Shown: one piece after another, positions 2,130-19,937 of the stretch
Layout of the letters: each line of letters opens with the position of its first letter
Numbering within the stretch: the first letter of the stretch is position 1
Assembly (NCBI GenBank): GCA_964655825.1
Contig: CAZZPW010000002.1
Coordinates: 6,813-46,073 of the forward strand
DNA from: an uncultured Candidatus Saccharibacteria bacterium
GTDB lineage: Bacteria; Patescibacteriota; Minisyncoccia; Phycocordibacterales; UBA918
Length of the DNA stretch: 39,261 nucleotides
Reading direction: 5' to 3'
Position numbers and translations under genes: made by a program
Notes under the pieces: model-generated
The model's database searches: none
The model's input: the letters and a program-made list of their open reading frames with translations, nothing else
Told to the model about the DNA's origin: nothing

Positions 2130-4073
2130 ATGAACGAATCAGCAGCTTCAGCGAGCCCCCGCCGCCGACCCCAACACGCTCGCCCCCGCAGCCGTGCGCA
2201 GCACAGCAGTACCCACAAACGGCCGAACGGCAATCGTGGTCACGAGCGACCGCGCGGCGCCAAAAAAACCACAAAAAAGACCAGTCGAAAGCGAAATGGT
2301 GGCCGCGGACAGCGTCGTCGCAGTATGACGAGTCCGGCCCTCAAGCACCGACTCGCTACGACCGACACCAAAGGACCGCAACTGCCCGAGGTAACGGACG
2401 AGAACACCATTCGCGTCATTCCCATCTCTGGCGTTGAAGAAATTGGTCGCAACATGATTGTGTTTGAGAGTAAAGACGACATCGTGGTATTTGATGCTGG
2501 TTTTCAGTTTGTTTCTGAAGGTTCGCATGCCCCGGGTATCAACTACATCTTGCCGAACACGCAGTACCTCGAGGAGCGTAAGCACAAAATTCGCGCGCTC
2601 GTGATTACCCACGGTCACCTCGACCACATTGGTGGCATCCCCTTCGTAATGGAACGGATTGGTAATCCACCTATCTATACCCAACACCTGACGTCGCTCA
2701 TGATTAAAAAGCGACAAGAGGAGTTCCCACACATGGACCCGCTTACCATCAACGAAGTTAAGGAGGGTGAAGGATTTACCGTCGGCTCAACGAAAATTAA
2801 GACGTTCCCCGTTACGCACTCGATTCCCGATGCAATGGGGGTCTCGGTGGAGACAAAGTTTGGTGATGTCGTAGTCACTGGTGACATTCGTCTCACCCAC
2901 GAAAACGGTGACGTCGTGCCCGAAGAGAAAAAGAGCTGGGAAGGTGTTGGTAAAAACAACAACCTGGTGATGCTGGCTGACTCCACGAACGCCGACCGCG
3001 ACGGTTTCTCCTCGCCGGAGAGTGTTGTCTTTGAGTCGCTCGAGCGCCTGATTCGCGACACGAAAGGGCGCATGGTTATCGGTACCTTTGCCTCGCAGTT
3101 TGAACGACTCATCCACATCATTAAAATGGCCGAAAAGTATGGCAAGTATGTGGTACCAGAGGGGCGTAGTATCAAAACGCACATCGACATTGCGATTAAG
3201 TCAAAAATGCTTGAAGTAAAACCCGGTGTACTTATTACAGCCCCCCAAATGGAGGACTACCCCAGCGATAAAATTGTCGTACTCGCCACCGGCGCCCAGG
3301 GTGAAGAGTTTGCCGCCCTGATGCGGATGGCGACCGACAAACATAAATACGTCACCCTAAATGAACGCGACACACTCGTACTCTCCTCTTCGGTTATTCC
3401 GGGTAACGAAATTGCCGTGCAAAAGCTCAAGGATAATATTTACCGTAAGAATGTTCGTGTCGTGAACTACAAGAGTGACGCAGTGCACGCCTCGGGGCAC
3501 GGTAATGCCGGCGAACTCTGTTGGGTACGCCAACAGGTTAAGCCCAAGTTCTTGGTACCGGTCCATGGTCATCACTTCCATCTCAAGAGCCACAAGTACG
3601 CGGCTATCGACACTGGTTTCCCGAAAGAGAATATTGTCGTGCCCGATAATGGCTCACTCATCGATATTGTAAATGGTGAAGAGATCATAGTGCACAAGCA
3701 AAAAGCCCCTACCGAGCTCATCATGGTGGATGGCTTTACCGTTGGCGCTAAACAAGAGGTCGTCTTGCGCGATCGTGAGACGCTGGCCAACGACGGTATG
3801 TTTGTGATTATCGCCACGGTAAGCACTAAGAACGGCAAGTTGCGCAAGTCACCCGACATCATCTCGCGTGGGTTTGTCTACCTCCGAGAAAACCAACAGT
3901 TGCTCTCCGAGGCCCGAGTATTGGTTAAACGAACTATCGAGAAGCACACGCAGGGTATGCACCCTCTCGACCTTGACTACGTCAAAGACCAGGTGACCGA
4001 CACCCTCAACGGCTTCCTGCTACAAAAAACACATAAGAACCCGATGGTCATCCCCGTCCTCATCGGTATCTAA
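2130..4073 (+). CDS. rnj: ribonuclease J (metallo-beta-lactamase/beta-CASP) with an Arg/Lys-rich N-terminal extension
   Basis: Contains the VITHGHLDHIGG metallo-beta-lactamase motif. The ~555-aa core has an RNase J layout (IRVIPISGVEEIGRNM start, HASGHG, VPVHGH). The first ~90 aa are low-complexity and basic. An internal Met (MTSPALKH) is an alternative start. Confidence 0.9.
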   Translation: MNESAASASPRRRPQHARPRSRAQHSSTHKRPNGNRGHERPRGAKKTTKKTSRKRNGGRGQRRRSMTSPALKHRLATTDTKGPQLPEVTDENTIRVIPISGVEEIGRNMIVFESKDDIVVFDAGFQFVSEGSHAPGINYILPNTQYLEERKHKIRALVITHGHLDHIGGIPFVMERIGNPPIYTQHLTSLMIKKRQEEFPHMDPLTINEVKEGEGFTVGSTKIKTFPVTHSIPDAMGVSVETKFGDVVVTGDIRLTHENGDVVPEEKKSWEGVGKNNNLVMLADSTNADRDGFSSPESVVFESLERLIRDTKGRMVIGTFASQFERLIHIIKMAEKYGKYVVPEGRSIKTHIDIAIKSKMLEVKPGVLITAPQMEDYPSDKIVVLATGAQGEEFAALMRMATDKHKYVTLNERDTLVLSSSVIPGNEIAVQKLKDNIYRKNVRVVNYKSDAVHASGHGNAGELCWVRQQVKPKFLVPVHGHHFHLKSHKYAAIDTGFPKENIVVPDNGSLIDIVNGEEIIVHKQKAPTELIMVDGFTVGAKQEVVLRDRETLANDGMFVIIATVSTKNGKLRKSPDIISRGFVYLRENQQLLSEARVLVKRTIEKHTQGMHPLDLDYVKDQVTDTLNGFLLQKTHKNPMVIPVLIGI

Positions 4074-7657: not shown

Positions 7658-7865
7658 ACTCTACGTCTCGCACACCATCCTCGGGTGGCATAATAATCCA
7701 CGCTAAGATATAAAACAGTATACCCGGTACAAAACCGGAGACAATCGTCACCAACACAAACGCTAAACGCCACAGTGTTACGTCATGACCAAAATACTTA
7801 GCCATACCAGCAATGACACCGGCTACCAGTTGATTAGATACATCTCGAGTTAATTTCTTTTCCAT
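7641..7865 (-). CDS. PspC domain-containing membrane protein
   Basis: KLTRDVSNQLVAGVIAGMAKYFGHDVTLWRLAFVL followed by one TM helix. The ORF track starts at a TTG (7880), but I prefer the ATG at 7865 (MEKKL). Confidence 0.7.
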   Translation of the reverse strand: MEKKLTRDVSNQLVAGVIAGMAKYFGHDVTLWRLAFVLVTIVSGFVPGILFYILAWIIMPPEDGVRDVEYVVNE

Positions 7866-7871
7866 ACATTC

Positions 7872-13273: not shown

Positions 13274-14509
13274 CTACTTTCCCCCACTATCGGGAATACC
13301 GTTGGCGTCTATAATGTCTTTGTATACCCACGCACTCGGGCGAATCGTTCGCTCGAGCGTGTCGTAGTTAATGGCGACCAACCCAAAGCACTTCTGGGTG
13401 CCTAAGGCCCACTCATAGTTGTCGATCAGGCTCCAGTACATATGCCCCCGCACATCAATGCCGTCATCAAGCGCGCGTTTGGTGGCTCGTATTTGTTCGG
13501 TGATGTAGGCCGCCCGTCGCGTATCCGTTCGGTCAGCCAAACCTGCTTCAGAGATAAATATCGGCTTACGGTAGCGTGTTAGTAATTTGAGCGAGCCGTA
13601 TATGCCTTCAGGATATATATCCCAATCCATATCAGTCTTATCATATTCAGCTCGATCACCGAACTTTTTATGGAAGTAGTAATTTAAGCCGATTGAATCG
13701 ATTGTATGTCGTACCCGTCGCATATATACATGCGTCCACATCCGGTTTGCCACCCACGCACGAAGCATATTGTAGGGATTCCAGTTCGCATGAAAATAAA
13801 TCACATGCTTTACAACGCCCACATCAAGATTAGGTTGACTGGCTTTAATCAATGTATACGCTTCGTTGTGGGCACGTGCCAGGTTACGGAGTACGCGTCG
13901 GTAGAGAAATAGCGGGCGAATGCCACGATTTGCTCGGGATTCGTATGTTCGACCCGAGTTTGTGATCGAAACGAAGTCGGTAGCGGCAAAACGTTTAAAT
14001 GGAGGCCAACTACCTCGCAGCCACCCATTACTGGCATACACATTTGGCTCGTTCATAGTCGAGAAGTGCGTACAGAGGTCGCCCAACTCCTTAGCCACAA
14101 AGGCACAGTAGCGAGCGAAGACTTGTGGCGCGTCGGCCCGTTCAAATCCACCCCGTTTGGCAAACCACTGGGGCAGCGTAAAGTGCCAGAGCGTTACAAA
14201 CGGTTCAATATTGCGAGCCCGCAAGGCTTTCAAGACTGCTCGGTAGTGCTCAATTTCGGCAAAATCCCACTTCCCTTCTTCTGGCTCAATGCGCGCCCAT
14301 TCAATCGAAAACCGGTGGGCATTATGACCAAGCTCTTTAGCAATATCAAAATCTTCTTCGTACCGGTGGTAGTGATCGGCTAAACGGCCAGCCGGTGGCA
14401 CCTTCCCATCCCGTGCGGCTTGCGCCCAATCGGTATTCTCGTTCCAGCCTTCGACTTGGTACGAGGCGGTGGCGGCACCCCAATAAAAATTTTTTGGAAA
14501 TGATTTCAT
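13274..14509 (-). CDS. GH1 beta-glucosidase
   Basis: FPKNFYWGAATASYQVEGW N-terminal signature, acid/base TMNEPNVY, nucleophile region FISEAGLAD. The ATG at 14509 is preferred over the TTG at 14515. Confidence 0.9.
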   Translation of the reverse strand: MKSFPKNFYWGAATASYQVEGWNENTDWAQAARDGKVPPAGRLADHYHRYEEDFDIAKELGHNAHRFSIEWARIEPEEGKWDFAEIEHYRAVLKALRARNIEPFVTLWHFTLPQWFAKRGGFERADAPQVFARYCAFVAKELGDLCTHFSTMNEPNVYASNGWLRGSWPPFKRFAATDFVSITNSGRTYESRANRGIRPLFLYRRVLRNLARAHNEAYTLIKASQPNLDVGVVKHVIYFHANWNPYNMLRAWVANRMWTHVYMRRVRHTIDSIGLNYYFHKKFGDRAEYDKTDMDWDIYPEGIYGSLKLLTRYRKPIFISEAGLADRTDTRRAAYITEQIRATKRALDDGIDVRGHMYWSLIDNYEWALGTQKCFGLVAINYDTLERTIRPSAWVYKDIIDANGIPDSGGK

Positions 14510-14640
14510 ACACAATTTTTATTGGCTCTTACAGAGGCAGTACACCCTGTCATCATTTTCTGCGAAAATGCTAGGCACGGTCTTGCAAAAGCGTCCCACG
14601 CTTTCTCACCCCACAAGAATCCTTCAGGAAATTTGTTCAT
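14506..14640 (-). CDS. doubtful 44-codon upstream ORF starting with a GH1-like N-terminal module
   Basis: MNKFPEGFLWGEKAWDAFARPCLAFSQKMMTGCTASVRANKNCV. Its TGA overlaps the GH1 ATG (ATGA), and its ATG overlaps the TGA of the upstream repeat ORF (ATGA). Confidence 0.25.
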   Translation of the reverse strand: MNKFPEGFLWGEKAWDAFARPCLAFSQKMMTGCTASVRANKNCV

Positions 14641-14963
14641 ACATTGTTGTCTTTAGGAGGTGCCGGCTGATTACAGCAGCGGTTCAGGTTATCAATATTT
14701 TTATTCAAAAACAGTAGGCAACCTCTTGCGACAGTCCCCCGCTGTCTCTGCTTACAGCAGCGGTTCAGGTTGTCGCTACTATTGCTCGTTACCTCGCATA
14801 GTAGCAGGCAACCTCTTGCGACAGTCCCCCGCTGTCTCTGCTTACAGCAGCGGTTCAGGTTGTCGCTACTATTGCTCGTTACCTCGCATAGTAGCAGGCA
14901 ACCTCTTGCGACAGTCCCCCGGACTGTCTCACCCCAGTAAAAATTTTCAGGGTACGTAGTCAT
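14637..14963 (-). CDS. doubtful 108-codon ORF running through the tandem repeats (Cys-rich 30-aa units)
   Basis: MTTYPENFYWGETV followed by 2 x RGTVARGCLLLCEVTSNSSDNLNRCCKQRQ and a 27-aa variant unit. The repeat periods of 81 and 90 nt keep the frame. A -10 box lies 6 nt upstream of the ATG. It could equally be a structured RNA leader. Confidence 0.3.
   Translation of the reverse strand: MTTYPENFYWGETVRGTVARGCLLLCEVTSNSSDNLNRCCKQRQRGTVARGCLLLCEVTSNSSDNLNRCCKQRQRGTVARGCLLFLNKNIDNLNRCCNQPAPPKDNNV
14671..14931. repeat. tandem repeat, three units (81, 90, ~90 nt) with internal hairpins
   Basis: TTACAGCAGCGGTTCAGGTT occurs at 14671, 14752 and 14842. The stretch 14716..14831 is identical to 14806..14921. 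Hairpins lie at 14768..14813 and 14820..14836 in unit 2, and again 90 nt further on. Confidence 0.95.
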
Positions 14964-14969
14964 GTCTTC

Positions 14970-14997
14970 AGTATAGCTTACCAAATTAGGGTACCAA
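14970..14997 (-). promoter_or_regulatory. candidate sigma70-type promoter inside the 3' end of the upstream gene
   Basis: On the minus strand: TTGGTA (14997..14992), a 16-nt spacer, TATACT (14975..14970), 6 nt, then the ATG at 14963. Confidence 0.4.
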
Positions 14998-15613
14998 TAG
15001 CGGCTGTACACGCTACACCAAAGAGTATGTACTCTACTCCCGACACCCAATTCAAATTGTAATACCAATACGGAACCCAATCATCAACACCCCACCGTGT
15101 GATGTATTGCGGCAGTTCATCTGCCGACCAGCTTATGATGGGTCGCAACCGACGCTCTTCAACCGACAATCGCTCCCAATCTCCGTCTACTTGTAATAGG
15201 TGTTTTAAACGATTTACACGCCGACCAAGTACCTTATAGTTTCGGTTTGAGAGTGGCCATAATACCTTTAGTCCCCAGCCTGTTCCGTATAAATCATTTA
15301 TCAAATGAAGTAAGACAGCGAAGGTTAGTACCCAGCCCCAGTATCCAACAAACCAGACTGCTAGAGCCATAAGACCCACCGCAAAAACTGGGTAGTGCAA
15401 AAAGGTTCTATGGTCAGCACTATGCACTGCTGAAGCAGCAACTCGACCTCGTCGCAATAGCTCAGGTAAAGCATCAATGTCTGGTACGTGCGAAAGGAGA
15501 AGACCAATTAGAAAATGCCACCACAGGACGTCGACACCGGTCACCCAACTCGCGAGCAATACTGCAAATATGCCGTTTGCCCAGTCAGCGAGTAATACAA
15601 CAACCTGCTTCAT
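14978..15613 (-). CDS. membrane-bound metal-dependent hydrolase, YdjM/DUF457-like
   Basis: 211 aa, multi-TM, with conserved-looking His/Asp positions (LLLSHVPDIDAL, ADHRTFLHYP, LLHLINDLYGTGWG). Confidence 0.6.
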   Translation of the reverse strand: MKQVVVLLADWANGIFAVLLASWVTGVDVLWWHFLIGLLLSHVPDIDALPELLRRGRVAASAVHSADHRTFLHYPVFAVGLMALAVWFVGYWGWVLTFAVLLHLINDLYGTGWGLKVLWPLSNRNYKVLGRRVNRLKHLLQVDGDWERLSVEERRLRPIISWSADELPQYITRWGVDDWVPYWYYNLNWVSGVEYILFGVACTAAIGTLIW

Positions 15614-16446: not shown

Positions 16447-17733
16447 CTACCGCACAGTTACCCCTTCGGGTACCTTTTCTGGGTCGACCAAAAAACCTTT
16501 TAAGTCGCGACGACCAATAATGATAGGGAACCGGAGGTGACTTCGTTCCGTGTAGCTTGCAATCGTTTTAATGGTCTTACCTTTCATTTTGAACGCAAAC
16601 TTTGCGGTCTTACGCTTTTGTCGACCACTCCCAGAGCGAACGTGGACGAGCTTGTCGTGTTCGTCTAAGCCAAGCTCGTGCACCAAATCGACGTCGATTG
16701 ATGAGCGAAACGCTCCGGTGTCGATTTTCGCACGGACACTTTTCTTTTTATTTGGTCCCATAATAGTAATACGTTCGATGACACCAAGCGTGCGGTCAGC
16801 GACATCAACCGCTTCAAGTGAACTATCAGCAAACAATTGTTGGGCCAACTGAATAGCTCGCTCCGTGGTCGGCACCTCAAGATTCGACACACGCTCTAAG
16901 CGCGTCCGTAACGATGAGCGATTCGCAACCTGAATGGAAAGCCCAGGCCGAGCGTTAACCTCGAGCACTAGCGGTCCTCGCTCCTCATCGAGAATAATAT
17001 CAATGCCGACAAACCCGAGACGCGAGGCTCGTTGCGCCTCGATTGAAACCCGTAAGATTTCTTCCCACTGCGGTAATTTAATACCGTGCAACTTAAGTTT
17101 TGTGCCCGGAACGTACCGGACAGTATCGTTATGAGCTGCCGCGTAGGTAGTGATACCAGTCCGCATATCGATACCAACGCCGAGGGCACCAAGGTGCAGA
17201 TTGGCTTTACCATCAGACTGTTTTGTCGGTAAGCGAAGCATCGCCATCACGGGAATACCATTACAGACAATCACCCGTACATCGGGCACACCACCGTGCG
17301 TGTACTTCTTAAACATAGAGTGCACCCGCACCCGCTCTTCCACAAAAGCGTTATCAGGTAAGTTGTCGAGTGAGTGTGCCCCATCGAGAATACCGAAGAT
17401 TTCTGACTCAAGGTCGGCTACTCCAAAATCTCGCTTAGCTGAACGCCCACTGGTACCATCCCACTTGCCGACTATCGTAATTCCACGGCCACCATAACCA
17501 TGCGCTGGCTTTAACACAAACGCGCGTGGGAGTGTCTCCCAGTTGTAGTGACGCGCGGTGTCGAATGAGGTAAATGCGGCAATCAGCCCGGTGGTCGGCA
17601 CACCTGCATCTAATAAGACTTGCTTGGTGGCTAATTTATCATCGGCACGCAGCTTATACGTACGCCGATTAAATTTGCGAATGTAGAGGTAGTTACGGGC
17701 ATTGAGACCCAACACTGTCTGACTGAGTGCCAT
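16447..17733 (-). CDS. RimK-like ATP-grasp amidoligase (alpha-L-glutamate ligase-like) fused to a C-terminal retropepsin-like domain
   Basis: LGLNARNYLYIRKFNRRTYKLRADDKLATKQVL, VLKPAHGYGGRGITIV and GIDIILDEERGPLVLEVNARPG are ATP-grasp features. The C-terminal ~110 aa carry VRAKIDTGAFRSSID (the D-T-G-A signature). Confidence 0.8.
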   Translation of the reverse strand: MALSQTVLGLNARNYLYIRKFNRRTYKLRADDKLATKQVLLDAGVPTTGLIAAFTSFDTARHYNWETLPRAFVLKPAHGYGGRGITIVGKWDGTSGRSAKRDFGVADLESEIFGILDGAHSLDNLPDNAFVEERVRVHSMFKKYTHGGVPDVRVIVCNGIPVMAMLRLPTKQSDGKANLHLGALGVGIDMRTGITTYAAAHNDTVRYVPGTKLKLHGIKLPQWEEILRVSIEAQRASRLGFVGIDIILDEERGPLVLEVNARPGLSIQVANRSSLRTRLERVSNLEVPTTERAIQLAQQLFADSSLEAVDVADRTLGVIERITIMGPNKKKSVRAKIDTGAFRSSIDVDLVHELGLDEHDKLVHVRSGSGRQKRKTAKFAFKMKGKTIKTIASYTERSHLRFPIIIGRRDLKGFLVDPEKVPEGVTVR

Positions 17734-17742
17734 AGTACAATA

Positions 17743-18663
17743 CTAATCTGTTACAAACTCCCGAAACCGAAAGACCTCAGTTAAGCGCAGGCCAAAGTAT
17801 CGACCAATCATAATATTCAGTGGTATGACGAGTAACACTAACTCGGGATAGACAATCAGGTAATTGCGCACCACTTCGCTCGTTGCTAAGAAGTACCCGA
17901 GTAAACCGAGCATCAGTGTCGTTGAAGTAATCGTCAGTGTTTCCGTTAAACTCTTGTGCAGTTGTACCGATACGATAGAGTCACCGAGCAAAATCAGAAT
18001 TAGAATCGGGAAAATTGACAAACTTAAGACTTGCTCGTACTCAAAGAAGAGGGCTGCCGTTAGAGCGGCAAAGACAAAAATGGAGAGGATCAAGAGCGAC
18101 AGCGAGCGTTTCGGGTAGAACATCATCCGGACATTAGAGACCAGCATTTTGGCTACGTACGACGCGAGTACGACCGCTCCCAAGATAAACAGACCTACCC
18201 CCACACCAACCGACACGAAGGCAAATGCTAAAGCAATCGGGACGAGCATGTCGACCGTTGGAAGGCCAATCACCACCCGGGTAAAACTAATACAGAGCGC
18301 CAGTATCGGCGTAAGCAGAATCAAGAATATTGTATTTGCAGGAATACCCACAAAAATTGCCTCCTGGACCCAGTACGCGAAGAAATTAAAAAACGTGAGT
18401 TCCGGCAGCGGTCGTTTCTCAAGCTCAGCAAAAATCGCCTGCTGTGCCTCTTCTCGTTCGGGCTGCGTAGGGTCGTTAGCTTGTGTGGTTACCGCTTCAC
18501 GTTGCGAGGTAAGCTCGGCGGCAGTGTTAGATGCTGCGAGTACCGGCGAAGCGCTTGTTGCCGTACTGGTGGCTACCGATGAGGTCGCGGTCGTTGTTTG
18601 CGCGTATAGCGTTACCGCGCTCAAAAGAAAAAGGGCTACAGCCCCTCCGAATACATATTTCAT
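17743..18663 (-). CDS. 7TM membrane protein of the type associated with RimK-like ligases (no transglutaminase domain)
   Basis: Signal peptide MKYVFGGAVALFLLSAVTLYAQ, a Thr/Ser/Ala-rich spacer, about 7 TM helices, and a C-terminal GLRLTEVFRFREF. The ATG at 18663 lies 2 nt after the upstream stop. Confidence 0.55.
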   Translation of the reverse strand: MKYVFGGAVALFLLSAVTLYAQTTTATSSVATSTATSASPVLAASNTAAELTSQREAVTTQANDPTQPEREEAQQAIFAELEKRPLPELTFFNFFAYWVQEAIFVGIPANTIFLILLTPILALCISFTRVVIGLPTVDMLVPIALAFAFVSVGVGVGLFILGAVVLASYVAKMLVSNVRMMFYPKRSLSLLILSIFVFAALTAALFFEYEQVLSLSIFPILILILLGDSIVSVQLHKSLTETLTITSTTLMLGLLGYFLATSEVVRNYLIVYPELVLLVIPLNIMIGRYFGLRLTEVFRFREFVTD

Positions 18664-18665
18664 AA

Positions 18666-19937
18666 TTACCACTGTGGCAGAATTTCTAGAGTTTGTAAAG
18701 ACGTTACATGTCGGTTATTCAACGGGTCGAATTTACCTACGAACAGATGTGGGTACCGCTCGGGATGGTTAATCAGATACTCCCACATCTCCACGTTGCC
18801 TTCAAAGTACACCATACTCTTGGTGAGCACACAGCCCGTTGACTGCCCAGTAGTACCCCGAAAAATACGTCGACACACCTCCCAGGTCCGACGAATAATT
18901 GATTCCTCATCGGCATGTGGGTCGTGACTGTGGATTTGGTAGTAGGCTCGCATGAGTACAAATACCGAACGGAAATCACGTTCCTCACCATCAAGCCCGA
19001 GCGCGAGTCCGAGGGCAAGATAGCGGTCTTGTCCGTAGAATAAATCGGCTCCTTCAACTTGCTGCTGAGTATAACTCGCCAGCCCTTCTTCACCCTTAAG
19101 GTACCCGTCGAGCCCTATCGCTAATAACCGTAACGACTGCTGCGTACCGCGGTGTGCCCGAGTAGCATGGACACCAATTTCGTGAGCCGCAATAGCCTCT
19201 GTTGCTACGTGCGTCAGGGGTCGGTGTCGATTCGCCAGATGTTCATCGTTAGGCACATACACCTGTCGTTTTGAGGGATTAACCGAAAAAATCACGCGTC
19301 GACCGGTAGTATCAACCACCACTTGCCAGCCCTCGAGAGCGTGTTCAGCAATAATCTCTTCAAATACCTTTGCTACCTGCGTGCTGGTGAGAGCTGGTTC
19401 ATTACTCGCTCGTAGGGGTGGCAGCACCTCTGTTGGCAATGGCTCTGTTGGGCGTGCTACGTGCCCAAGTGTGTCGGAGAGTTTATCTAACGCCTGTTCG
19501 GCAGTACTATTGTTGGGGGTCTGTGCTAATGCGTGGTGTACAATTTGGGCAAAGTAGGTGGTATTAGGGCTCCCGTAAATCAGTTTTGACGTGGCGCAAA
19601 ACCGCTCGTCGTCCAATTGAGCAGCTGCGTCAAGCAATTCAAAACGCAACTGCTGGTTCTTCAGTTTAGCCCGGTACAATTGCACCACCACCTCGGGGGC
19701 AGAACTCGATTCGACCACATCCACGCACTCAGCCAGCGCGGCCGTCGCCGCCGACATGTCAAAAACCGCGGGTTCGAGTAAAAATTTTGGGTTTTCTACC
19801 TCATCAGTAATGAAGCGGACAAATTCCCGCCGGTCAACACTAATCATCGCCTGCAACACTTCCTCATCATTCACACTATCAAGTGCCGTGCGTAGTGACG
19901 CAAAAAGATCAGCATCGAGTACCGGATGTGCGCTCAT
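18666..19937 (-). CDS. DUF1704-family (QEGLA-motif / MATCAP-like) metallocarboxypeptidase
   Basis: HEIGVH (HExxxH) at AIAAHEIGVHATRAH, and a QEGLA-like LKGEEGLASY motif. 423 aa. Confidence 0.7.
   Translation of the reverse strand: MSAHPVLDADLFASLRTALDSVNDEEVLQAMISVDRREFVRFITDEVENPKFLLEPAVFDMSAATAALAECVDVVESSSAPEVVVQLYRAKLKNQQLRFELLDAAAQLDDERFCATSKLIYGSPNTTYFAQIVHHALAQTPNNSTAEQALDKLSDTLGHVARPTEPLPTEVLPPLRASNEPALTSTQVAKVFEEIIAEHALEGWQVVVDTTGRRVIFSVNPSKRQVYVPNDEHLANRHRPLTHVATEAIAAHEIGVHATRAHRGTQQSLRLLAIGLDGYLKGEEGLASYTQQQVEGADLFYGQDRYLALGLALGLDGEERDFRSVFVLMRAYYQIHSHDPHADEESIIRRTWEVCRRIFRGTTGQSTGCVLTKSMVYFEGNVEMWEYLINHPERYPHLFVGKFDPLNNRHVTSLQTLEILPQW

Follow-up and report, generated by a model that had tools for sequence, protein, structure and literature searches.

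Several described systems combine small size, secondary structure and dispersal in a genome. The repetitive extragenic palindromic sequences with their mosaic arrangements (REP/BIME) and the palindrome-associated transposable elements (PATEs) are short, hairpin-rich and multi-copy, sometimes stand in tandem, and adopt a strand-specific single-stranded fold. The Rickettsia palindromic elements (RPEs) are ∼100-nt hairpin-forming interspersed repeats of small-genome, host-dependent bacteria that lie in or beside genes and RNA genes and are tolerated by being translated through; they sit in-frame inside functional proteins with no duplication of a gene end. The retroposons known as short and long interspersed nuclear elements (SINEs and LINEs) include small, structured, non-autonomous units with one precise end and occasional truncated copies; we know of no SINE-like system established in bacteria. 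Integrative elements that target tRNA or protein genes leave a truncated fragment next to an intact gene, with direct repeats that allow precise loss. Here, a 39,261-nt stretch of an uncultured Candidatus Saccharibacteria bacterium (contig CAZZPW010000002.1, positions 6,813 to 46,073; hereafter the window) was analyzed, in which a structured tandem repeat fills much of the gap between the genes for a YdjM-family membrane protein and a GH1 β-glucosidase. The repeat is securely identified as a local head-to-tail trimer of a dispersed element that we name E, which resembles each of the above systems in part. We consider it likely that E acts as a non-autonomous mobile or formerly mobile element.

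The original prediction had been made from the window alone, and its description of the repeat holds up on the sequence in location, internal identity, hairpins and open frame. A period-90 array of 2.4 copies with 98% matches was found at 14716–14930 by Tandem Repeats Finder. As had been claimed, nothing else in the window is repeated in this way: it is the sole long-period array, and all others have periods of at most 11. The 116 nt at 14716–14831 are identical to those at 14806–14921, and the 20-mer TTACAGCAGCGGTTCAGGTT starts at 14671, 14752 and 14842; the array is composed of two identical 90-nt units and an 81-nt variant. A bipartite 46-nt hairpin occupies 14768–14813 and again 14858–14903, a form with no match in the dinucleotide-shuffled window, and the hairpin GACAG-N7-CTGTC lies at 14820–14836. 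The 81-nt unit (14667–14747) keeps the flanks and has an A/T-rich apex in place of the central hairpin tip. The minus-strand frame is free of stops from the ATG at 14963 to the TGA at 14637, amounting to 108 codons. Overlooked at that stage were a fourth, diverged unit, two copies of the GH1 gene start, and the presence of the same unit in other genomes.

The check put forward in the original prediction, whether the unit is dispersed or unique to this locus, proved decisive and showed that it is dispersed in many genomes. A degenerate pattern, GCAAGANNNTGCC..GAYANNNTNNAC..CTGTAA, was derived from six copies and scanned over the GTDB species genomes, where it matched more than 118 stretches (a lower bound), often several per genome. 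About 63 of the 80 records listed bear the names Paceibacteria/Parcubacteria, Kaiserbacteria, Nomurabacteria, Zambryskibacteria, Patescibacteria or 'Saccharibacteria'; nine are labelled 'bacterium' and eight have other names. The E contigs L026, L045, L046, L055, L085, L088, L096 and L097 are filed under metagenome-assembled genomes of Acidimicrobiales, Azotimanducaceae, Patiriisocius and Bdellovibrionales. Since some of these genomes (Patiriisocius sp., Acidimicrobiales) hold a GH1 like that of the candidate phyla radiation (CPR), the E contigs are probably mis-binned CPR sequences. The family is almost entirely patescibacterial (CPR), mainly of Paceibacteria-type lineages.

The non-coding element E is defined as TGAGA-H1-GCAAGA-H2-TGNAC-H3, where H1, H2 and H3 are hairpins, with a median length of 88 nt and a range of 62–118 nt. 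A covariance model (R1) built from 124 copies recovered 173 copies in total from the window and 121 loci, with as many as seven lying within ∼2 kb; within the 39-kb window it found only four copies, all at 14521–14943. A third subfamily with the H2 base CTCATTG/CAATGAG is not caught by the pattern, so the family is larger than counted. The neighbors of E are GH1, a P-loop kinase, RNase HII, MsrA, many different tRNA genes and the ends of convergent tRNA genes. Rfam 15 gave no match at the gathering score across the whole window, and a search of 14450–15050 at an expectation value of up to 10 returned two chance-level matches only (a plant miRNA and a flavivirus frameshift site). The original view that the unit is structured and falls outside the riboswitch, REP, CRISPR and leader classes then considered is upheld. 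Full-text literature searches found no description of E, and to our knowledge no comparable small dispersed repeat has been described in CPR/Patescibacteria. E represents a widespread CPR family, structured and interspersed, that is apparently undescribed.

Some family members are arranged in ways of their own. Dense clusters comprise seven copies on both strands in L109 (700–2250) and six in L133 (530–890 and 4200–4490), and at L131 (∼7745–7870) one E has entered the H1 loop of a third-subfamily E directly behind GGG, with no flank duplication. Two tRNA loci, L070 (1841–2100) and L092 (850–1122), contain two or three partial tRNA copies, which suggests repeated events at the same site; L092 also has a 3′-truncated E consisting of H1 only. 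At L029 (∼3310–3480; orthologous L028), the tRNA downstream of E (anticodon loop CTGTAGA) seems extended by a long insertion after the anticodon loop, which may be a tRNA intron.

The three hairpins are joined by unpaired motifs in the order G↓TGAGA-H1-GCAAGA-H2-TG(T/A)AC-H3 (the arrow marks the junction), with UGUAA as the H3 loop. The unpaired segments that hardly vary are GCAAGA, a CC(A/T)G/CGA internal loop, TG(T/A)AC and the UGUAA loop. In 78 copies aligned by fitting to the model, pairing is present in 95.3% of cells as compared with 70.2% in shuffles and 37–48% with slid partners, changes on both sides are seen in 25 of 25 base pairs, and the covariation score is 0.62 versus 0.17. RNAalifold run on a plain MAFFT alignment independently recovered H2 and H3 with heavy covariation, one H2 pair being CG 72 times and GC 49 times. 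The close relatives of the window locus carry compensatory variants of H1 (GACAGTC/GACTGTC, AAAGCG/CGCTTT, GAAGTGC/GCACTTC) and of the H2 base (AGGTTG/CAACCT, ACCGTG/CACGGT, ACCTTG/CAAGGT), and H3 variants CTGCT-GTA-AGCAG and CCTCT-GTA-AGAG. Taken singly, the full units of the window fold far below their shuffles, with z = −4.9 (first unit, 94 nt) and z = −3.5 (second, 90 nt), and so does the entire gap (z = −4.2 for the minus strand and −4.9 for the plus strand).

G.U pairs exceed A.C pairs by 71 to 18, which assigns the fold to the TGAGA-reading strand, the minus strand of the window. This asymmetry fits RNA, and a single-stranded DNA fold is also compatible with it. A protein-binding DNA array, one of the original proposals, is still conceivable, but the asymmetry points instead to a single-stranded fold. 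The alternative folds that had been proposed across unit junctions were recovered as a long-range CAGCGG/CCGCUG stem that the internal units can form. A 2-nt deletion in H1 of these units (14748–14837 and 14667–14747) creates the pairing, which competes with the family fold in minimum-free-energy prediction.

All genes of the locus are on the minus strand, with YdjM at 15613–14978 (PF04307; gene order kept in relatives), a 468-nt gap, and GH1 at 14509–13274. Reading along this strand, the gap contains X1, E-A1, E-A2, E-A3, tail A, X2, E-B and tail B, followed by GH1. X1 (N1; 14932–14963), identified by repeat search and translation and lying 14 nt beyond the YdjM stop, is a pseudo-start made of diverged GH1 codons 1–11 (ATG ACT ACG TAC CCT GAA AAT TTT TAC TGG GG, encoding MTTYPENFYWG). 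The second pseudo-start, X2 (N2; 14609–14640), found by repeat search, likewise consists of diverged codons 1–11 and reads MNKFPEGFLWG. The third copy of the duplicated segment is the first 32 nt of GH1 itself (14478–14509), reading MKSFPKNFYWG. X1 and X2 both end in ...TGGGG, and TGAGA with a structured unit follows. The GH1 gene is intact (13274–14509; 411 aa; PF00232, expectation value 7e-70) and its product is 100% identical to a Candidatus Paceibacterota (CPR) protein.

E-A1 (14838–14931; 94 nt) has the full architecture TGAGA-H1-GCAAGA-H2-TGAAC-H3 with a long H2 apex, and its covariance-model match spans 14834–14943 (94.5 bits, expectation value 2e-24). E-A2 (14748–14837; 90 nt), recovered by the covariance model and by Tandem Repeats Finder, abuts it through the head-to-tail junction H3 ...GCAG↓AGACAG... 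H1 and has lost the TGAGA 'TG' as well as 2 nt from H1. E-A3 (14667–14747; 81 nt; 47.9 bits with the covariance model) is like E-A2 in its H1 and H3 flanks except for one H3 base, and its H2 apex is short and A/T-rich, resembling the family consensus. The swapped apex together with the single H3 base make it likely that the units recombined, or that a template switch took place, at the H2 base, which is conserved. Tail A (CCGGCACCTCCTAAAGACAACAATGT; 14641–14666, by direct reading) includes CCGGCACC (14659–14666), the reverse complement of GGTGCCGG and a 7/8 match to the GH1 site GG↓TGCCGC. Behind X2, E-B (14526–14608; 83 nt; 'CC' H2 type) is the fourth and diverged copy, matched by the covariance model at 14521–14620 (78.9 bits, expectation value 4e-20); the same three hairpins are built from different bases. 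It is orthologous to the single copies of L009, L012 and L018, with compensatory changes between them. Tail B (CCAATAAAAATTGTGT; 14510–14525), identified by inverted-repeat search, contains CCAATAAAAATT (14514–14525), which is perfectly complementary to GH1 codons 7–10 (14480–14491). The resulting CCAATAAAAATT / AATTTTTATTGG inverted repeat (14480–14525) forms a 12-bp stem with a 22-nt loop that holds the GH1 ATG; in RNA, this stem would enclose the GH1 start region in a hairpin.

Comparison with related loci shows sites with and without E. In the GH1 orthologues L018, L013, L009 and L012 (81–86% identical), a pseudo-start and one E are present in every case. L014 (GH1 77% identical) keeps the YdjM–GH1 order with a spacing of 13 nt and no E, and L016 (75% identical, with another upstream gene) has 7 nt ahead of GH1 and no E. 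The position of X1 in the window is that of the GH1 start in L014, and the TATACT box preceding X1 is found in L014 at 7 nt before the GH1 ATG. Direct repeats would permit precise loss, which could explain the empty sites of close relatives.

The ends of E are sharply defined. Position −1 is G in 147 of 158 copies (93%), −2 and −3 are G in ∼58%, and the element starts with TGAGA in 110 of the 158. Outside E, the flanks are unrelated among copies, with no conserved sequence beyond the G preference, and what follows H3 shows no conserved composition beyond slight G-richness; in all-versus-all BLAST, the tails share only downstream genes or neighboring E copies. No positional −10 box was detected upstream of the copies and no terminator belongs to E. 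A stretch of at least 8 nt that ends exactly at the junction and is repeated within 350 nt downstream was found in 26 of 158 copies, as compared with 2 of 162 in a control using a foreign downstream region. These duplications (∼16% of copies) measure 12–77 nt, with a median of 34, and end exactly at G↓TGAGA; by gapped alignment, a duplication with an end-gap of 0 is present in ∼29 of 75 copies of the first, partly hand-picked set. The duplicated pieces are GH1 starts (at least three lineages), the starts of a P-loop kinase (MIIGITGTxGAGKG; PF13238), RNase HII and MsrA, the 5′ parts of many tRNA genes and, at convergent tRNAs, the 3′ end with the terminator. The junctions in protein genes interrupt a Gly codon just after its GG, and wherever the flank is duplicated the intact gene copy is downstream of E. 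Insertion would be placed just inside the start of a gene or tRNA, with surviving alleles carrying a 12–77-nt duplication of the upstream flank and the intact copy downstream; in the window, insertion at the Gly-11 codon of GH1 would have occurred at least twice. The majority of copies have no long duplication, which is therefore not an obligatory insertion product; long duplications may be the survivable subset of in-gene events or come from a separate process.

Head-to-tail E-E junctions occur in four genomes (the window, L024, L045 and L114), and in all of them the last G of H3 is joined to (A)GA without the 'TG' of ordinary junctions. Such regularity points to units whose ends are defined, (G)AGA ... 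H3-G, and which overlap by 1 nt where they join. Because the four independent genomes share this H3-G↓AGA form, the trimer would most likely have arisen from a multimeric intermediate or a template jump, and later unequal exchange would explain differences in copy number between assemblies.

The tails after H3 can also carry an inverted copy of the target. This anti-target segment, a reverse-complement copy of the intact target spanning the insertion point, reaches a score of at least 16 in 35% of duplication-bearing copies as compared with 1.6% of foreign tails (Mann-Whitney p = 1.5e-5). It spans −3 to +9 and lies 4–9 nt after H3 in L090, L076, L029, L078 and L134, and is shorter (−3/−4 to +5) in L119, L115 and L102. 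In four anti-target copies, the linker is a sense copy of ∼+3 to +10 that forms a hairpin with the anti-target. Both window tails have such segments, perfect in tail B and 7/8 in tail A, and in the relative L013 the tail variant matches its own GH1. A stem closing the upstream flank onto the tail is weak (9% vs 2%, p = 0.036) and clear only against the reconstructed intact site. The anti-target may be a scar left by a cut staggered by 12 nt, may act like a guide, or may reflect a pairing under selection. Simple target-primed reverse transcription (TPRT), hairpin-end and snap-back models were considered, and none reproduces the full X1–E–inverted 12-mer–spacer–X2 layout.

The reading frame through E suggests how GH1 could stay expressed. 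In 13 of 16 protein-gene cases, the open reading frame (ORF) from the pseudo-start continues across the whole of E and has its stop within −12 to +1 of the downstream ATG, which implies a translational relay rather than a conserved peptide. ATGA overlaps are present in both window modules and in L009, L119 and L102. The GGT-GAG-A.. frame is open in 12 of 15 gene-start copies and in 34 of 129 others (odds ratio 11, p = 7.5e-5), an enrichment best explained by translational coupling. In the window, a promoter-like TTGGTA-16-TATACT (14970–14997, minus strand), detected by a consensus scan, overlaps the last part of the YdjM gene and leaves 6 nt to the ATG at 14963, which predicts a leaderless or near-leaderless transcript. 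Such a transcript would begin at X1, and ribosomes would translate upstream ORF 1 (uORF1; 14637–14963; 108 codons) from X1 through the hairpins of all three E-A units. Tail A ends in GTATGA, so that the uORF1 TGA overlaps the ATG at 14640; ribosomes would pass there to uORF2 (14506–14640; 44 codons), which runs from X2 through E-B. Tail B also ends in GTATGA, and at the overlap of the uORF2 TGA with the GH1 ATG at 14509 they would pass to the real GH1. E is probably co-transcribed with GH1, whose expression is probably kept by this uORF1–uORF2–GH1 relay, as judged from sequence features.

The number of units was compared across assemblies. An identical GH1 was found in eight other contigs (from ENA, JGI, NCBI GCA_035311865.1 and Logan), of which four show a gap of 378 nt, shorter by precisely one full unit, and four break inside the array. 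The JGI contig L004 opens with an H1 of the internal type and then a full H2; an independent assembly therefore contains at least two full units, and the array is real. The copy number called for confirmation in the original prediction is thus secured for at least two full units and stands one unit lower in four assemblies; array length is either polymorphic or sometimes collapsed by assemblers. A metagenome scan for the unit-unit junction returned two contigs only, both ending in the array, and informs copy number only.

Several observations weigh against a mobile or formerly mobile E. No RT-like (reverse transcriptase-like) ORF is present among 899 ORFs in 8-kb pieces around E copies, no transposase, RT or integrase is encoded among the 30 window ORFs scanned, which are all ordinary CPR genes, and the viral contigs scanned with the family pattern gave 0 matches. 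Clustering of the 899 neighboring ORFs recovers only target genes (GH1, kinase, RNase HII, MsrA and others). Around 84% of copies have no long flank duplication, and neither does one nested E-in-E copy; the first 50 loci were partly hand-picked and the unbiased second set shows only 7 duplications in 86. The structural alignments were fitted to the model, and the pairing percentages are somewhat inflated in consequence. The evidence for transcription, translation and movement is all indirect. Mobility of E, present or past, is well supported, and E is most likely a small element of a new kind that moves or once moved. We lean toward RNA-templated rather than DNA-based movement, since the regular E-E junctions suggest template jumping on RNA or a multimeric intermediate.

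Movement as DNA would make E a REP/PATE-like single-stranded element that is mobilized in trans by an HUH enzyme (IS200/IS605-type, or like the REP-associated tyrosine transposases, RAYTs) or by another DNA enzyme. In this reading, which we regard as unlikely, the hairpins would form in single-stranded DNA instead of RNA, and staggered −3/+9 cleavage would have left the duplications and inverted 12-mers behind as scars of repair. Small hairpin-rich repeats preceded at the insertion point by a fixed base are characteristic of IS200/IS605 derivatives, single-stranded DNA hairpins also tolerate G.T wobbles, the constant −3 to +9 limits of the inverted copies suggest a 12-nt staggered DNA cut, and no RT was seen near E. 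IS200-type Y1 TnpA genes (PF01797) lie within 1 kb of E at L028 (3751–4185) and L082 (5127–5597), but two per 121 loci is about the chance level, and the left- and right-end hairpins flanking these TnpA genes (CACCGGC..GCCGGTG and CCACCAGC..GCTGGTGG), at the two loci examined, are unlike E and do not show the resemblance expected of an IS200/IS605-derived PATE or REP/RAYT system, a further point against mobility by this route. IS200/IS605 elements insert 3′ of a tetra- or pentanucleotide without duplications; at E, the only conserved positions are G at −1 (93%) and a preference for G at −2/−3 (∼58%), and 16% of copies have duplications. The conserved single-stranded linkers and internal loops of E are also more like a folded RNA. 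A selected role as a host-beneficial RNA module spread through the genome (in processing, stability, translation control or protein binding), the array being a GH1 dosage variant, is quite improbable. Its strengths are the strong conservation of sequence and structure across distant CPR lineages, the near-invariant single-stranded GCAAGA, TGTAC and UGUAA loop motifs, co-orientation with the downstream gene start (38 vs 17, in a partly hand-picked set) and the pairing of tail B with GH1 codons 7–10 around the start codon. The genes associated with E, however, have no function in common (GH1, kinase, RNase HII, MsrA, various tRNAs and the far side of convergent tRNAs), the empty sites in close relatives are precise, one copy can be nested in another, and E has neither promoter nor terminator of its own; such traits are typical of selfish repeats.

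Readings restricted to this locus fare worse. A GH1-specific riboswitch-like leader with tandem sugar-sensing aptamers, to which we assign a very small probability, would suit a highly structured array directly upstream of a glycoside-hydrolase operon, and tandem aptamers are known in some riboswitch classes. The same E stands beside unrelated genes and tRNAs, which speaks against GH1-specific regulation; the downstream genes are not functionally coherent, GH1 orthologues of 75–77% identity are entirely free of E, and the array has no Rfam match, expression platform or terminator. The earlier idea of a structured leader of the GH1 operon is right only on the surface: co-transcription with GH1 is probable, but the element occurs elsewhere beside unrelated genes and tRNAs. 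It is scarcely credible that the open frame encodes a functional Cys-rich repeat protein, as had been suggested, or a multi-core peptide precursor of the ribosomally synthesized and post-translationally modified kind. A 108-codon ORF with four Cys per unit, periods of 90 and 81 that are both multiples of three, and a frame kept open in gene-start copies would be expected of it; yet the peptide is rewritten by hairpin-compensating substitutions (ETVRGTVARGC / EKAWDAFARPC / EKCWEHFARPC), differences in H1 length shift the frame through the rest of E (L022 vs the window), and just 26% of family copies have a length divisible by three. Frame and peptide thus vary across homologous loci, the ORF has no Pfam match and was left uncalled by gene callers in eight assemblies, and its N-terminus is a truncated GH1 fragment. 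We likewise give hardly any weight to an assembly artefact in which a single unit is real. The missing full unit in four short-read assemblies and the four contigs terminating within the repeat would agree with it, but the shortest allele still has two units (one full and one variant) plus the separate E-B, only a second full unit explains the beginning of L004, and tandem E junctions of the same form exist in three other genomes; furthermore, the 206-nt periodic stretch holds no repeated 141-mer, so k141 assemblies would not need to collapse the array.

Set against the systems introduced above, E has distinctions of its own. It is longer than REPs and PATEs, with three different hairpins and conserved linkers, and its duplications and anti-target have no counterpart there, even though some E-bearing genomes do contain Y1 transposases. 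Unlike RPEs, E follows a truncated gene start and is itself followed by a regenerated, whole gene, and it has a three-hairpin fold with conserved linkers. Compared with SINEs that move by TPRT, E has variable flank duplications (12–77 nt in 26 of 158 copies), head-to-tail multimers compatible with RT template jumping, and an extra T at the 5′ junction compatible with non-templated addition, but no A-rich 3′ tail, no RT in the 8-kb surroundings of its copies, no long duplication at most copies, and an inverted −3 to +9 target copy that is not a SINE feature. Integrative elements are kilobases long, encode an integrase and carry a replacement gene end, usually the 3′ end, whereas E is ∼90 nt and its duplicated piece matches the local gene. 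With mobile group II introns, E shares a GUGAGA start close to the intron 5′ consensus GUGYG and a target-complementary segment across the insertion point (cf. the exon- and intron-binding sites, EBS/IBS). The group II intron endonuclease cuts the bottom strand at +9/+10, which the +9 boundary of E recalls. In contrast to these introns, E has ∼90 nt and no domains I–VI, the gene is restored by duplication and not by splicing, and the complementary segment lies outside the conserved fold with the sequence of the local target. According to PMC10714607, which cites Tsurumaki 2022, introns of groups I and II occur in CPR rRNA genes, and the genomes may therefore encode intron RTs.

A number of other classes were considered and rejected. 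A CRISPR array would have unique spacers between its repeats, but here the units follow one another head-to-tail without spacers and share 116 nt of identity. Like miniature inverted-repeat transposable elements, E has many dispersed copies, sharp ends and presence/absence polymorphism, but its 5′ TGAGA and 3′ H3 are not complementary, inverted repeats being confined to internal hairpins, and its duplications are variable (12–77 nt) and mostly absent instead of fixed in length. The consensus of 124 copies lacks the GTTRRRY/RYYYAAC pair of integron attC sites, nor does E occupy cassette boundaries. Group I and II introns were dismissed for a ∼88-nt element of three simple hairpins with no match to an Rfam intron model, and splicing because a complete gene, ATG included, lies downstream. 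A type III toxin-antitoxin system (toxI-like) disagrees with a GH1 glycosidase downstream and a dispersed E, and a retron RNA with the window neighbors YdjM and GH1 and with the absence of an RT-like ORF near 168 E copies. ARAGORN found no tRNA or tmRNA in the window that would support a tRNA-like origin, and no Nop-domain protein is nearby as for tandem interspaced guide RNA (TIGR) arrays. Hammerhead, hepatitis delta virus-like, pistol and hatchet ribozyme cores, K-turn and box C/D motifs and ribosomal bypassing were rejected by inspection of the consensus or gene context.

Upstream of YdjM, at 16447–19937, a cluster conserved in relatives encodes an ATP-grasp protein (ATPgrasp_ST, with weak TTL and aspartyl-protease matches), a 7TM_transglut membrane protein and a MATCAP-family (tyrosine carboxypeptidase-like) protein, and may be a peptide-ligase/carboxypeptidase system.

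A more specific and tentative possibility is that E represents an undescribed bacterial mobile class, moving by a new route, in which a small structured RNA is copied back into DNA or integrated in some other way with target processing fixed at −3/+9, rebuilding the 5′ end of the gene or tRNA it hits and being relay-expressed from the host promoter. The E RNA would possibly process itself at the 5′ G↓UGAGA end, and the inverted 12-nt target copy would be left by the −3/+9 processing.

The properties that set E apart are the regeneration of gene starts by flank duplication, the inverted target copy and the read-through translation. In practical terms, E breaks short-read assemblies, as in the eight contigs of this organism, and creates false gene starts; annotation pipelines will misread the partial tRNA and protein pseudo-starts that it leaves. 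The relay, if true, shows how a leaderless gene survives an insertion. If the −3 to +9 inverted copy reflects insertion chemistry, it would indicate an integration mechanism with no described bacterial counterpart. CPR genomes are tiny, and an element that is abundant and lineage-wide in the starts of genes and tRNAs would be a new factor in their evolution.

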